DNA of 64,000 nucleotides from Bacteroidetes bacterium 4572_112 (GTDB lineage: Bacteria > Bacteroidota > Bacteroidia > Bacteroidales > UBA1556). The DNA is taken from assembly GCA_002254285.1 (NCBI GenBank), contig NIUZ01000001.1, positions 701 to 64,700 of the forward strand, given 5' to 3'. The notes under the pieces are model-generated. The model saw only the letters and a list, made by a program, of their open reading frames with translations, was not told the DNA's origin and did no database searches. Positions 47,593 through 56,865 of the stretch are shown in pieces. A program made the translations under genes and the position numbers. Each line of letters opens with the position of its first letter. Position 1 is the first letter of the stretch.

Positions 47593-48792
47593 TTATAAAC
47601 CCAATTTCTTTTTAATAGACTTTGGAAGAGCATCTTTATGAATTACTATATCCATAGTTTTGTACTCAACAAATGCTTTTGAAGCGTAGAAATAACCATC
47701 ATATTTTTGGTCAGTTCCCCATGAGTTTTTAATCTTATAGTAAACATTACCATTTTGATCTTTAGCAATACCTATAATGTGCATTCCGTGATCGTCAGTA
47801 GTTTGGTAATTGTCAAAAGCCATTTGTCTAACTTCTTGAGTAATTTCTTTCTCTTGAACTGGACCTTCAGCAGATAATAAGCCTTTTTTAATATCCTTAG
47901 CACTTTTATCTTCCCACTTAGATTGTTCTAAATCAGATAAATTCTTTACATCAGTCTCAGGAACTACTGCATAACCTTTGCTCCATTTAAAACCTTTTTC
48001 GCTAACATCAGCAGCCCAAGCTATAGTCATATCATTTGCAATAGCATTATCTATTACTTCCATAAGCTCATTCAATGGTAGGTTATAGCTTAAATCTAAA
48101 GCCCAATTATCAGGTACTTCAACAGCAAATTCTTCGTAAAATGGGTGGTGAGAATATGAGGTAAGGAAAACGTAATCGTCAAAGTTAAACTTCATAAAAT
48201 CATCAGCAAAACTACGAGGTGTATATTTAGCTCCTTTATATTCAAAATCTTCAGGAATAGGGCCTAAGTATGTGCTAATAGTTGCTTCAATTGCTTTAGG
48301 CCATACAGGAGTGAGTGTTCTGTTTTTGTCTTTTATTACAGACTGTACCATTGCCATAAGCATAGCATCCATTTCGCCATGTACATGGTTGTCTGTGCCA
48401 TAGTTGAGTCCACTATATGCTTCTTCGGTAATCATACCGTATTTTTTCATCACATGAAAAACATCACCAAATCCAGCACCTGCACCATAGTTTAGGTTAC
48501 CGTGCATGCGTACATATTGTATTGATTTGTCGTAATAAGTATGGTGTACTGCAAACATTTCTGATAAGTCCACATCACCTTGTCCAGTACGCATAAGTTC
48601 AGCCTCAATAAAGCTAATTGCACTAAAGCTCCAGCAAGTACCTGAGCGATATTGGCTTTTTACAGATGTATGAGGGATCACTTTTGTATCAGTAAATACA
48701 TATCCTTCTTGTTTTTCTTCCTTAGCCTTTTCTTGAGCAAAAGCTCCAAGGCTAATTAGCATTATCAATACTGTTGAGATTAATTTATTCAT
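47593..48792 (-). CDS. C1-family cysteine aminopeptidase (PepC/bleomycin-hydrolase-like) with a signal peptide
   Basis: SQYRSGTCWSFSA catalytic Cys region, HGMHIIG catalytic His region, and NSWG. Confidence 0.85.
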   Translation of the reverse strand: MNKLISTVLIMLISLGAFAQEKAKEEKQEGYVFTDTKVIPHTSVKSQYRSGTCWSFSAISFIEAELMRTGQGDVDLSEMFAVHHTYYDKSIQYVRMHGNLNYGAGAGFGDVFHVMKKYGMITEEAYSGLNYGTDNHVHGEMDAMLMAMVQSVIKDKNRTLTPVWPKAIEATISTYLGPIPEDFEYKGAKYTPRSFADDFMKFNFDDYVFLTSYSHHPFYEEFAVEVPDNWALDLSYNLPLNELMEVIDNAIANDMTIAWAADVSEKGFKWSKGYAVVPETDVKNLSDLEQSKWEDKSAKDIKKGLLSAEGPVQEKEITQEVRQMAFDNYQTTDDHGMHIIGIAKDQNGNVYYKIKNSWGTDQKYDGYFYASKAFVEYKTMDIVIHKDALPKSIKKKLGL

Positions 48793-52755: not shown

Positions 52756-53098
52756 AAAATTGATATATTGTGTTGTTATTATTCTAAAAAATTAATTATT
52801 TTAACTCGTGTTATATTTACAAAAATTCTGACATTATATTTGCGAAAAGGTTTAATAATAGTAAAATATTAATTAAACAAATTAGCTACTGTTAATAATC
52901 ATTTTATCAATAATGTATTGTACTGGATTTAGTTAATACATATAGATGCTTGTCAAAATTTACACTACTTGTTAAAAACATAATCTTATTGTCATATTAT
53001 ATTTATAGCAGGCACAAAGGTAATACATAAATATCAAACTGTTATGATTGTTTTGCATACTTAATTTGTGATCAAAAATAGATGCTTACATAGCAATG

Positions 53099-53707: not shown

Positions 53708-53876
53708 TATATCTATTGTAAATATTGGTATTATAAATTTGCTGCGAATGTAGTTATATTATGTAAAAATTAAGGTTTTTAATGTAGTTTTTATAAAATA
53801 TCCAAATACTGAGTATTTTGCCATAACTTTGCACCCTAATAGTCAATCAAAATTATAACTATAAATAATTATAAAT

Positions 53877-54344
53877 ATGGGTGCTAAAGTATATAAAAGT
53901 GAGTATAAGAATACGCCTTATAATGCTGCAAATGTATTCGTACATCTTTCGACTTTTGATTTTCTAAATTTTGTTTTTAGTACCGAAAATATCGAAAGAA
54001 TAAAAGGTGAAGCTGGCCAAAAGGCTTCAAATTTTCATGTGAAAAAATATTCAGTAGATAAGGAATCATGTGAGTTTACAATAAATCCCATTGGTACCAT
54101 TTCCCTAGTTTTTGTTGATAAAAAAGCTCCTTACCATATTCAAATCAAAAATATTAAAGGCCCTCTTAAATTTAATTTAGATATTGATATACAGACTATT
54201 GATGCCGACAGTTGTAAGCTGCAAGTAGTATTATCAGCTGAGCTGAATATGATGATGCAAATGATGATTGGTAAGAAAGTAGATAAGGTGGTGGATAAAA
54301 TTGCAGAATCGCTTTCGTTAATTCCTTTTGATAAATTAGCTTAA
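53877..54344 (+). CDS. Hypothetical protein, possibly SRPBCC/START-like fold
   Basis: 155 aa. The predicted pattern (beta, two helices, about six strands, then a long C-terminal helix MMMQMMIGKKVDKVVDKIAESL) is consistent with SRPBCC. This is a guess from sequence pattern only. Confidence 0.4.
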   Translation: MGAKVYKSEYKNTPYNAANVFVHLSTFDFLNFVFSTENIERIKGEAGQKASNFHVKKYSVDKESCEFTINPIGTISLVFVDKKAPYHIQIKNIKGPLKFNLDIDIQTIDADSCKLQVVLSAELNMMMQMMIGKKVDKVVDKIAESLSLIPFDKLA

Positions 54345-54380
54345 AATTATAAGTATTATTAGTCCTATTTATTCTATTGA

Positions 54381-56192
54381 ATGCAAAAAATACTCTTAAA
54401 CTACCTTCCTCCTTCAGATATTTATACGCCATCAGCGGCTTTATCTATTCTTAAAAGCTTTATGCTTGAGCATGACTTTGATACTGATATTAAGTATTGG
54501 AATTTGCTATTTAAACCAGTATTGCCATTACAAGATAGTGACGAAATTGAGGAAGCAATAATCCCATTTGTATCAATTTTAAATGACCAGTTTACTAATG
54601 ATGAGGGCAATGATAAAGCAGCACAATTACTACATTCACTATTGTCGGAAAGTGAGCAGCATGATTTAATTTATTATAAGAAGCTGCTTATCAGCACAAA
54701 GAAAGATATTTTCAGAATTATAAATAAGGAATTGTCGCAGCTCAACTTCTCAGATATTTTGCTCTTTGGAGTGAGCTCTAAGTTTCATCAGTGGATTCCA
54801 GGAATGATTCTGTGTCAGGAGGTAAAAAAAATATCGCCAAACACGGCTACCGTTGTGGGTGGTTTTGGCAGCGTTCAATCTGCTGTGGAAGCCATGAAAA
54901 TGAACCCCGATTTTGATTTTGCCACTTGGGGCGAAGGCGAATATCCTTTGCTTGAGCTTAGTAAGCAACTCAAAGCTTCGGAGCAAGATTTCAATGAAGT
55001 ACCACGCTTGATATTTCGTGAGAATGGTAAAATACAGATTTCTACCACAAATAGAAGTGAGTATCTTGATATGCAGGATTATATGATTCCTAATTATGAT
55101 GATTATTTTGAGAATTATCCTGTTACAGAAGAGAAATATAAGATAGTAATTCCCATAAATTCGAGTAGGGCCTGCTCATGGAATAAGTGCAAATTCTGCG
55201 ACTATAACAGAGGTTATAAATACCGTGCTCGTACTGCCGAATGTATTATTAGTGAGGTGGAGCAGATAGCTCGAAAGCACAAAAGTGCTTGTTTCTCTTT
55301 TGTGGATAACGATATTTATGTAAATCCCGAGCATTTTGAACATCTGCTGGATTTAATGATAGAATCCATAAATAAGCATAATTTTGATTATGAATTTTGG
55401 GCAGAGATGATTCCCAATGAAAAACTTACTGCTCCAACTCTTAAAAAAATGCAGCAAGCTGGCTTTAGCCAAATTTTTGATACCCTACTTGAGAAAATGG
55501 CAAAGAGCAACACTTTTTCTAGCAATATTCTGTTTTTGAAGTTCTCTTTAAAAAACGAGATTTACCCTTTGGTAAATATTATTAAAGGTGTGCTTGGCGA
55601 AACTGCTGGTGATGTAATTGAGAGTATGGCGAATCTGTATTTTCTTAGATTTTTCTATAATAAGGAAGAGTATTCGCTTTATCATGAGTATGTTACTTTG
55701 GTGGTTTCAAATATGACTAAATATTATACTATGCTGTCGGCAGAGCAGCGAGCAGAGTATAATACTAATAAGCTTACGGATATGCTACCAAGGCATTTCT
55801 CAGAAGGCGATTCAAGATTTAGCCTTTTTCGTTGGCAAAAACAGAAAGTGGATAATCATAAACAATGGGCAGCAATACAGCTTAAGGAAGAGTATTATGC
55901 TGAAAATATCCATACTTATAAAATTAATGAGCAAGAAGCCATTATTGAGTTTACAGAATTTGTAAATGATAAGCATACTGCAACTTATAAGCTGGATAAG
56001 GAAACTGATTGGCAGATTTTGAAATTAGCAAATGAGCAGATTATGAGCTTTGAGGATATGCTTTCGCAAATGCAAACTCTTAAACCTGATTTTAATTCTG
56101 AGGATTTGAAAAAACATCTTAGCCGATTAAAAGAGATTCACCTACTGTATTGTGATAAGAATTTCTCTGGGATTATTTCGGTGATTGGTTGA
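54381..56192 (+). CDS. B12-binding-domain radical SAM protein resembling the RiPP-maturation radical SAM family
   Basis: N-terminus LLNYLPPSDIYTPSAALSILKSFMLEHDFDTDIKYWNLLF resembles the family N-terminus (MPF....PSLGLSLLKA.L...G....V.Y.NL.F). Cys cluster SRACSWNKCKFCDYN (nt 55173-55199). NIIKGVLGET (the family's N.I.GFPGET motif). Confidence 0.7.
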   Translation: MQKILLNYLPPSDIYTPSAALSILKSFMLEHDFDTDIKYWNLLFKPVLPLQDSDEIEEAIIPFVSILNDQFTNDEGNDKAAQLLHSLLSESEQHDLIYYKKLLISTKKDIFRIINKELSQLNFSDILLFGVSSKFHQWIPGMILCQEVKKISPNTATVVGGFGSVQSAVEAMKMNPDFDFATWGEGEYPLLELSKQLKASEQDFNEVPRLIFRENGKIQISTTNRSEYLDMQDYMIPNYDDYFENYPVTEEKYKIVIPINSSRACSWNKCKFCDYNRGYKYRARTAECIISEVEQIARKHKSACFSFVDNDIYVNPEHFEHLLDLMIESINKHNFDYEFWAEMIPNEKLTAPTLKKMQQAGFSQIFDTLLEKMAKSNTFSSNILFLKFSLKNEIYPLVNIIKGVLGETAGDVIESMANLYFLRFFYNKEEYSLYHEYVTLVVSNMTKYYTMLSAEQRAEYNTNKLTDMLPRHFSEGDSRFSLFRWQKQKVDNHKQWAAIQLKEEYYAENIHTYKINEQEAIIEFTEFVNDKHTATYKLDKETDWQILKLANEQIMSFEDMLSQMQTLKPDFNSEDLKKHLSRLKEIHLLYCDKNFSGIISVIG

Positions 56193-56401
56193 TAAAGGTT
56201 GAAGTGGTTTAGAAAAAAAGGTTGAAAAAGGTTTAATTTACTGCTAACAGATAGGTTGTTATGGCTTCAATGTTAATTTTAGTTCATCATATTCGATAAC
56301 TTAAATTCTATTATCACGCGATTTATTTAAATTTCAAATCCTAGTTTAGCAAATATAGTATTTAGTTAATCAAAGATTTTATTATAACAAAAAAAAGGTA
56401 T

Positions 56402-56479
56402 CCACGAATTACACTAATTAGCACGAATTATTTTTCGCTAGCGGAAAATAAACTTCGTGGAGATTCGTGTAATTTATGG
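56402..56479. repeat. REP-like palindromic element (family 2, copy 2)
   Basis: Nested inverted repeats ccacgaattacac / gtgtaatttatgg and cacgaatt / acttcgtgg surround the centre tttttcg-ctag-cggaaaa. It shares cgaattac.ct.att.a...aattatttttcg....cg.aaaa.aa with 49883-49950. Confidence 0.7.
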
Positions 56480-56535
56480 ATAAACTAGTTTGAGCAAGGC
56501 AAAGCCTTGTGAAAACAGATTATTTAATTAATTGA

Positions 56536-56569
56536 AAAAGTCCCATTTCAATAAAGAAATGGGACTTTT
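56536..56569. terminator. Strong bidirectional hairpin in the ORF-free region between the rSAM gene and arcB
   Basis: A 13-bp perfect stem, aaaagtcccattt / aaatgggactttt (loop caataaag), with A/T runs on both sides. Confidence 0.7.
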
Positions 56570-56865
56570 GTATATTAATAGATCTTCTAGAAAATCAATG
56601 TTCTATTTTGCGAGTTTTTGAAAAGAAAGCGACATAGACGAGGCTTTTGAAGTTTTTGAAATAAGGAGTTTACATTTTGTAATCGACTGTTTCAAAAACG
56701 AAAATAACGAAGTAATACCAATTGTTATTTAAAATGCGCTAAAGTGCATTTTAAATTTACAATGGTTTATGCCGAGATTAAATCAAAACTCTTTTAGAAG
56801 TGAATGAACTAAAAGAGCGTATTGATTTTTAATCGGTATAAATGTTGTTTTCTATCAAAAACTAA

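Follow-up and report, generated by a model that had tools for sequence, protein, structure and literature searches.

Do two adjacent forward-strand genes of Bacteroidetes bacterium 4572_112, one for a small protein of 155 residues and one for a radical S-adenosylmethionine (SAM) enzyme of 603 residues, form a functional module, and on what does the enzyme act? Both genes lie on contig NIUZ01000001.1, within a stretch of 64,000 nucleotides that is the window of our analysis. A sequence-only reading of the window had proposed a two-gene module, in which an SRPBCC-like protein accompanies a cobalamin-binding enzyme resembling those that mature peptides that are made by ribosomes and modified after translation (RiPPs). 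The overall explanation that we favor, with slightly more confidence than doubt, is that the product of the larger gene is a radical SAM enzyme of class B (with a cobalamin domain), whose family is a sister of the PoyC-type RiPP C-methyltransferases, that enzymes of this kind would methylate a peptide or protein, that the gene belongs to a clade in which it stands alone, that the copy in the window is damaged, and that its small neighbor is not a conserved partner.

Identity and fold of the 603-residue protein

The protein is 100% identical to a hypothetical protein in the metagenome-assembled genome of Bacteroidetes bacterium 4572_112. The nearest curated family in NCBIfam is TIGR03975, a family of RiPP C-methyltransferases, and the alignment runs from end to end, with residues 4-593 of the 603 covering profile positions 1-598 of 606. 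The resemblance to RiPP-maturation enzymes that had been noticed earlier was thus well founded. At 164.6 bits, the match stays below the curated cut-off of 281.85 bits; all lower NCBIfam matches were to other B12-binding radical SAM families and did not exceed 57.5 bits. With Pfam, the window copy gave a Radical_SAM match of 25.0 bits (threshold 29.5) and a weak B12-binding match of 14.6 bits, and the same domains were matched in 18 of 18 relatives (best E 3.7e-18) and 17 of 18 relatives (best E 6e-7), respectively.

The fold was examined with an AlphaFold2 model of the intact relative P0002, which is 91% identical to the window protein. The model, made from a 53-sequence alignment, has a mean predicted local distance difference test (pLDDT) score of 90.7. 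In a Foldseek search against the PDB, its top matches were TsrM (6wte), TokK (7kdx), OxsB (5ul3), CysS (9n1b), and MgmA, with E values from 3e-17 to 2e-12 and template modeling (TM) scores of about 0.5-0.56. The first four share the overall fold with the model and have the Gly-Gly and Gly-Glu cobalamin motifs in common with it, and OxsB also shares the Cx4Cx2C cysteine spacing. However, sequence identity to the present family is just 12-15%, the solved class B enzymes act on different substrates (free tryptophan, carbapenem, and nucleotide substrates), and the present family stands apart by having its own winged-helix domain at the C-terminus.

The features that define class B enzymes are largely in place. 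The N-terminal Rossmann-like cobalamin-binding domain is present, with G160-G161 on strand 156-162 and G184-E185-G186-E187 at the start of helix 187-198 of the P0002 model; Gly-Gly and Gly-Glu are hallmarks of base-off cobalamin binding in OxsB, TsrM, and TokK (PMC9204698). The three-cysteine motif for the SAM-binding [4Fe-4S] cluster is also present, and C265, C270, and C273 are invariant. As these cluster ligands are the only invariant cysteines, the enzyme is unlikely to have an auxiliary cluster. All SAM-binding motifs are found in the relatives but not in the window copy, which retains a GGE-like motif (FVDND) and the GxIxGxxE-like strand β5 but lacks a segment of strand β4. Sequence comparison and the predicted structure show that the gene product has the cofactor-binding architecture of a class B radical SAM enzyme, in which a Rossmann-like B12 domain at the N-terminus is followed by a partial TIM-barrel core, predicted to hold one [4Fe-4S] cluster, and by a C-terminal winged helix. 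The layout proposed from the letters, a B12-binding-like domain followed by the radical SAM core, was borne out by Pfam, NCBIfam, the model, and Foldseek alike.

When 1.84 billion cluster representatives were searched with a profile of the family, 476 clusters (at 50% identity) matched with E<=1e-30, mostly full-length proteins of about 610 residues. Ten family members from across the score range were compared with TIGR03975. Nine of them scored 95.7-176.6 bits, all below 281.85, and the tenth (P0272) matched nothing at E<=1e-20; the intact P0002 reached 176.6 bits. As every tested member falls below the cut-off, we regard the proteins as a distinct sister family of TIGR03975 that has no curated NCBIfam model. 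On the evidence of the alignments, the family is shown to be a full-length sister of the PoyC-type RiPP C-methyltransferases and not part of TIGR03975 itself. A literature search for a characterized member of the family found none.

The sequence-only reading had described the cysteine motif CSWNKCKFC as atypical, expecting CxxxCxxC in relatives. The Cx4Cx2C motif is indeed there, but it is no oddity of this protein, as it is the family norm and occurs as CxWxxCxFC in 132 of the 136 representatives with a detectable motif. The expected CxxxCxxC was not what relatives carry: the close ones all have Cx4Cx2C, PoyB, PoyC, and the bottromycin methyltransferases have Cx7Cx2C (PMC5682303), and OxsB, a solved cobalamin-dependent radical SAM enzyme, uses Cx4Cx2C (PMC9204698). 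The PoyC/PoyB type is like the present family in its architecture of about 600 residues, with a B12 domain, a radical SAM core, and a C-terminal domain, and RiPP-like clusters also hold distant members of the present family. The two differ in cysteine spacing, and the present family scores below the TIGR03975 cut-off; the clade of the window differs further in being solitary, without an NHLP/Nif11-type precursor nearby. As side observations on gene organization, one Bacteroidetes locus (L046 6751-10434) carries two tandem copies of the radical SAM gene, and three proteins of 1,800-2,300 residues (P0261, P0265, and P0270) each showed 4-5 separate matches to the family profile, a pattern suggestive of multi-domain fusions.

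The C-terminal domain comprises residues 518-607 of P0002, with strands within 518-546 and helices at 550-556, 564-574, and 580-592, and is modeled with pLDDT 94-97. It resembles a RiPP recognition element (RRE). Its profile weakly matched the RRE region of the sactipeptide synthase CteB (5wgg residues 32-91, E 0.045), alongside generic winged-helix proteins, and no PqqD Pfam match was found in the domain.

The missing core segment and the mosaic locus

An in-frame loss of about eight residues, or else a divergent subfamily, had been suspected where a strand of the form (I)Q.G(I/Y)ES.S was expected. The loss is real in the assembly and amounts to exactly seven residues, IGYDAIT, which follow ...GFSQIF and are missing from the window protein only in an alignment with 17 relatives. 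At the DNA level, the 21 nt ATTGGCTACGATGCCATAACT are absent relative to contigs L086, L081, and L001, and the flanking microhomology is one base at most. The strand reads IFIGYDxxS/T in relatives, not GIES, and the other family members show next to no variation at its I, G, Y, and D. A divergent subfamily does not account for the gap, because IGYDAIT is retained both in L081, whose radical SAM protein is 91% identical, and in L086, whose flank and gene for the 155-residue protein are ~100% identical to those of the window.

In the P0002 model, residues 362-370 form the fourth core strand, if the one that precedes the Cys loop is taken as the first. In keeping with damage, the Pfam Radical_SAM match of the window protein ends at residue 364, and the intact P0002 outscores the window copy by 12 bits on TIGR03975. 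On this strand, class B enzymes carry the residue of the "ribose motif", which is Glu436 in OxsB, Asp335 in TsrM, and Gln312 in TokK (PMC9204698). IGYD pairs with VSLQ in a profile alignment to CysS, and from this alignment and the strand order in the P0002 model, we infer that D370 is likely the SAM-ribose contact. A phmmer search of the core segment alone against the PDB gave no match, hence no alignment that directly includes Asp335 of TsrM. Should the deletion be real, the window allele is probably catalytically impaired, as judged from sequence and model. The earlier caveat that the gene might prove degenerate for want of SAM-binding motifs holds in part, since the β4 motif is gone and the GGE-like and GxIxGxxE-like motifs are kept.

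Lineage-specific codon changes numbered 15 non-synonymous and 54 synonymous in the window copy and 20 and 63 in the sister lineage. As these ratios resemble each other, there is no sign of decay in the radical SAM gene. The 21-nt deletion is recent, tolerated, or an artefact; if real, the loss would be recent, because there is no relaxation of selection over the remainder of the gene.

The DNA around the deletion has a composite history. The window and L086 (a JGI contig) are ~100% identical from position 48,076 to ~54,528, after which identity falls abruptly to 75-94% inside the radical SAM gene. In comparison with L081, synonymous divergence (dS) of the radical SAM gene is 0.52, while pnuC and the gene for the 155-residue protein are saturated. 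Over the 3-kb locus, the comparisons of the window with L081 and L084 gave discordant histories in the same sense, with dS of 0.5-0.9 in the radical SAM gene and saturated synonymous sites in the two others. A divergent block, formed by a helical insert of the B12 domain at residues ~70-130, comes in two allele types that are common to several strain backgrounds. The sequence comparisons indicate that the locus is mosaic, either because co-existing strains have recombined or because the assembly is chimeric. The window copy is probably crippled or mis-assembled.

The small upstream gene and the surrounding DNA

The possible SRPBCC fold of the 155-residue protein found support. Its Pfam COXG match (17.7 bits, E 0.003) is below the cut-off of 22.2 bits, and NCBIfam gave nothing for it. 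The AlphaFold2 model, made from five sequences, has a β-α-α-β6-α helix-grip topology at a moderate pLDDT of 72, and the top 50 Foldseek matches in the PDB were all Bet v 1/START/CoxG proteins (E about 1e-6, TM scores 0.35-0.53). A search of 5.8 billion proteins found four relatives, at 99, 89, 59, and 46% identity, and all of them share one arrangement, namely a divergent pnuC, the small gene, and then the radical SAM gene where the contig reaches that far. The ratio of non-synonymous to synonymous substitution rates (dN/dS), 0.08-0.28, is that of a real gene on which purifying selection acts. Its divergence is much faster than that of its neighbors, as the protein is 46-59% identical where the radical SAM protein is 89-91% and PnuC 80-82% identical (for example in L081 and L084). 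The protein shares the helix-grip topology of the SRPBCC superfamily but passes no Pfam or NCBIfam threshold, and with moderate confidence in this model-based assignment, we regard it as an SRPBCC/Bet v 1-like member of a lineage-restricted orphan family of five sequences.

For the question of a module, the neighbors at 80 genome loci encoding radical SAM relatives were examined. A BLASTP search with the 155-residue protein against all open reading frames (ORFs) of these loci gave no match beyond itself; the gene is absent from 80 of 80 loci, including the syntenic ones with a radical SAM identity of 80% and 68%, which leaves the proposed two-gene module unsupported. The worry that the pairing might not be conserved applies outside a narrow clade, within which the pairing holds in five further contigs (L081-L086; radical SAM protein 89-92% identical where present). 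The order of CHU_C protein, PnuC, radical SAM enzyme, ornithine carbamoyltransferase, and carbamate kinase is kept in L001 and L002 (radical SAM protein 80% identical) and in L087 (68%). These three have a different small minus-strand gene between pnuC and the radical SAM gene, which has its own TAnnTTTG motif there. The spacer between small gene and radical SAM gene varies from 36 to 255 nt, and the same-strand ORFs upstream of the radical SAM gene in other loci are all unrelated to one another. By these comparisons, the small gene was inserted between pnuC and the radical SAM gene in this lineage specifically and is not a conserved functional partner.

In the window genome, the small gene is probably nevertheless co-transcribed with the radical SAM gene. 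The gap between them is 36 nt, and a search for the Bacteroidetes-type -7 promoter pattern TANNTTTG (TAnnTTTG) found a match upstream of the small gene (Table 1) and the next one on the plus strand only at 55379. As there is no plus-strand match between 53831 and 55379, the radical SAM gene is probably transcribed together with its neighbor. The 135 matches in the window compare with 104 expected, so a match to this pattern is weak consensus evidence only.

Table 1. Positions of the genes and motifs discussed, in window coordinates unless a related locus is named.
Feature	Position	Strand	Basis or remark
Promoter motif of the Bacteroidetes -7 type, TAACTTTG	53824-53831	+	Pattern match; 46 nt 5' of the start of the 155-residue ORF
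ORF of 155 residues	53877-54344	+	ORF call
Radical SAM ORF of 603 residues	54381-56192	+	ORF call
Cobalamin-domain hallmarks: Gly-Gly G160-G161 (VVGGFG) and Gly-Glu in W183-G-E-G-E187	54858-54941	+	Invariant in alignments
[4Fe-4S] motif CSWNKCKFC (Cx4Cx2C), codons 265-273 (C265/C270/C273)	55173-55199	+	Family hallmark CxWxxCxFC
Deletion site (55478/55479 junction); core strand β4 without its second half and the following loop	55467-55490	+	Protein and DNA alignment
GxIxGxxE-like SAM-binding strand β5, NIIKGVLGE, kept	55575-55601	+	N399, I401, and E407 invariant; strand 402-409 of the P0002 model
C-terminal winged helix of three strands and three helices, resembling an RRE	55911-56180	+	P0002 model
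Precursor-like ORFs, L051	12671-13120		
Precursor-like ORF, L060	12489-12704		
Precursor-like ORF, L061	11476-11679		
Precursor-like ORF, L054	7116-7316		

The pair is surrounded by housekeeping genes, which encode a CHU_C/type IX secretion system (T9SS) protein, PnuC, ornithine carbamoyltransferase, carbamate kinase, an MtaB-like radical SAM enzyme, an M23 peptidase, and Dxr. In relatives, an AAA_28 (NadR-like kinase) gene stands between the CHU_C gene and pnuC (L001 6589-7101 and L087 2481-3002). As the window has just a 343-nt gap at this position (52756-53098), the AAA_28 gene was lost in the lineage of the window.

Downstream of the radical SAM gene, 673 nt (56193-56865) contain ORFs of 20-30 residues at most. 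Within this spacer, an 85-nt near-perfect hairpin (56398-56482; minimum free energy -35.9 kcal/mol, z -7.5) occurs once in the window and has no match in Rfam; it may be a palindromic or miniature inverted-repeat transposable element (MITE)-like element. An inverted repeat at 56517-56588, whose core (AAGTCCCATTTC...GAAATGGGACTT) contains GC and which has runs of T on either strand, resembles a bidirectional terminator placed between the radical SAM gene and the convergent ornithine carbamoyltransferase gene. Rfam gave nothing credible for 52.7-57.0 kb of the window and nothing for eight loci with long upstream gaps, PADLOC gave no defense-system match, and BLASTN of the 673-nt spacer against plasmids gave no match.

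Genomic context and possible substrates

That no transporter, protease, or obvious precursor gene is adjacent to the pair was confirmed for the adjoining genes in the window. The larger intergenic gaps of the window contained no precursor-like small ORF, and tblastn searches of the whole window with SPASM, MFS, and precursor proteins of distant clusters gave no match. When neighbors of at least 60 residues within 4 kb were clustered over the 80 loci, no protein family was present in more than 14 loci, and in the Bacteroidales clade the same distance held no conserved partner beyond local synteny. Among small ORFs of 18-110 residues within 1.2 kb, there was no conserved same-strand peptide; the clusters of small ORFs that did form were shadow frames of a conserved MFS gene.

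RiPP-type neighbors were found at none of the 50 loci with at least 37% identity to the window protein (the Bacteroidales clade) and at 16 of the 30 loci from distant clades (30-36% identity). They include radical SAM/SPASM peptide maturases, whose closest NCBIfam resemblance is to PapB, DynA, CefB, and geopeptide maturases, as well as MFS/ABC exporters and YcaO proteins. L051, L054, L060, and L061 also encode Cys-rich precursor-like peptides of 67-71 residues that end in ...ECGCCCIYSNYCPNK or a closely similar sequence; L051 has two copies in tandem. The leader of these peptides, MLLxNKSGRIYDVPE..., is conserved and their C-terminus is rich in Cys, they matched no NCBIfam model, and their genes adjoin those for a radical SAM/SPASM maturase, an MFS exporter, and the distant B12 radical SAM enzyme in Syntrophia-type genomes. 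As the SPASM enzyme of these clusters begins directly at the radical SAM core, without an N-terminal extension, the B12 enzyme may supply leader recognition there. In a neighbor-joining tree, the loci with RiPP context fall on several deep branches, and the solitary Bacteroidales genes form one separate clade. A TIGR03975-type cluster, with a precursor and RiPP genes, was found neither in the window nor at the 50 loci of the clade.

By analogy to TIGR03975 and the distant genomic contexts, SAM would be cleaved reductively to a 5'-deoxyadenosyl radical, the radical would abstract hydrogen from an unactivated carbon in the substrate, a peptide or protein held by the RRE-like C-terminal domain, and a methyl group would be moved from methylcobalamin to the substrate. 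As the gene is solitary in the Bacteroidales clade, the substrate of the enzyme would be encoded elsewhere in these genomes. Several points weigh against this explanation as a whole. Methylation is carried over solely from the nearest family, and class B enzymes can carry out other reactions, for instance the ring contraction by OxsB. The RiPP context is confined to distant clades, and the function may have changed in the solitary one. The RRE assignment draws on topology and the match at E=0.045, with no PqqD Pfam match. The effect of the deletion on activity is a prediction, and the deletion itself could be an assembly artefact, given the drop in identity to L086 at about nt 54530 inside the gene. 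Finally, class B enzymes in RiPP pathways also perform other chemistry, such as the biaryl coupling by BipD (PMC12707348).

Two alternatives concern the locus itself. The 21-nt gap could be an assembly or strain-mixing artefact, with an intact and functional gene in the organism. This is doubtful, though it deserves to be reckoned with, as the drop in identity to L086 points to a recombinant or chimeric stretch, all other family members retain I-G-Y-D, the window branch has no excess of non-synonymous changes, and the source is a metagenome-assembled genome. However, a clean in-frame loss of 21 nt is untypical of short-read assembly error, and the reading frame and every other motif of the gene are intact. 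It is very improbable, in our view, that the two genes form a functional module in which the SRPBCC-like protein would serve to bind a lipid or a hydrophobic small molecule and hand it over to the radical SAM enzyme. Such a module would fit two genes on one strand at close distance, with a single promoter-like motif 5' of the small gene, an arrangement that recurs in five further contigs, the typical ligand binding of SRPBCC folds, and the purifying selection on the small gene. It is hard to reconcile with the lack of the small gene at all 80 genome loci and the different minus-strand gene that fills the gap in syntenic ones, with just four relatives in 5.8 billion proteins, with divergence of the small protein to 46-59% while the radical SAM protein stays at 89-91%, with the variable spacer, and with a radical SAM family that has a peptide-type winged-helix domain.

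The other alternatives concern the substrate. We consider it unlikely that the enzyme of the solitary Bacteroidales clade acts on a non-peptide substrate, be it a lipid, a cofactor, or another metabolite, in the way that many enzymes of class B do. No precursor, protease, or exporter is linked across 50 loci, each radical SAM gene seems to be a transcription unit of its own among housekeeping genes, and the weaker NCBIfam matches include B12 radical SAM enzymes for lipids, hopanoids, and phosphonates, all of which would suit such a substrate. Yet the best full-length match by far is the RiPP family, at 164.6 bits versus at most 57.5, the winged-helix domain is conserved in the Bacteroidales clade, and RiPP clusters occur on several deep branches of the family. 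Improbable, but worth stating, is a scenario in which the Bacteroidales clade has moved on from RiPP maturation to modify an unlinked cellular protein or a non-peptide substrate by radical, cobalamin-dependent chemistry, and in which the orphan SRPBCC protein was recruited in the lineage of the window as a ligand carrier or specificity factor. The explanation that we prefer remains that of a class B enzyme with a peptide or protein as substrate, a solitary gene in this clade, and a damaged copy in the window.

Class B radical SAM enzymes perform difficult C-H functionalizations, and few are characterized. The present analysis delimits a large family without an NCBIfam model, with a fixed Cx4Cx2C motif and a C-terminal winged helix. 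Its genes occur in two genomic settings, within RiPP-like clusters in Syntrophia, Nitrospirota, and Desulfobacterota, and alone in Bacteroidales. The window copy is a poor starting point for work on this family because a core strand is missing, and the family is better studied via the intact homologues of cultured Marinilabiliales or the RiPP-clustered Syntrophia members than via this locus. With Labilibacter, Carboxylicivirga, and Lentimicrobium as cultured carriers, the family is experimentally tractable.

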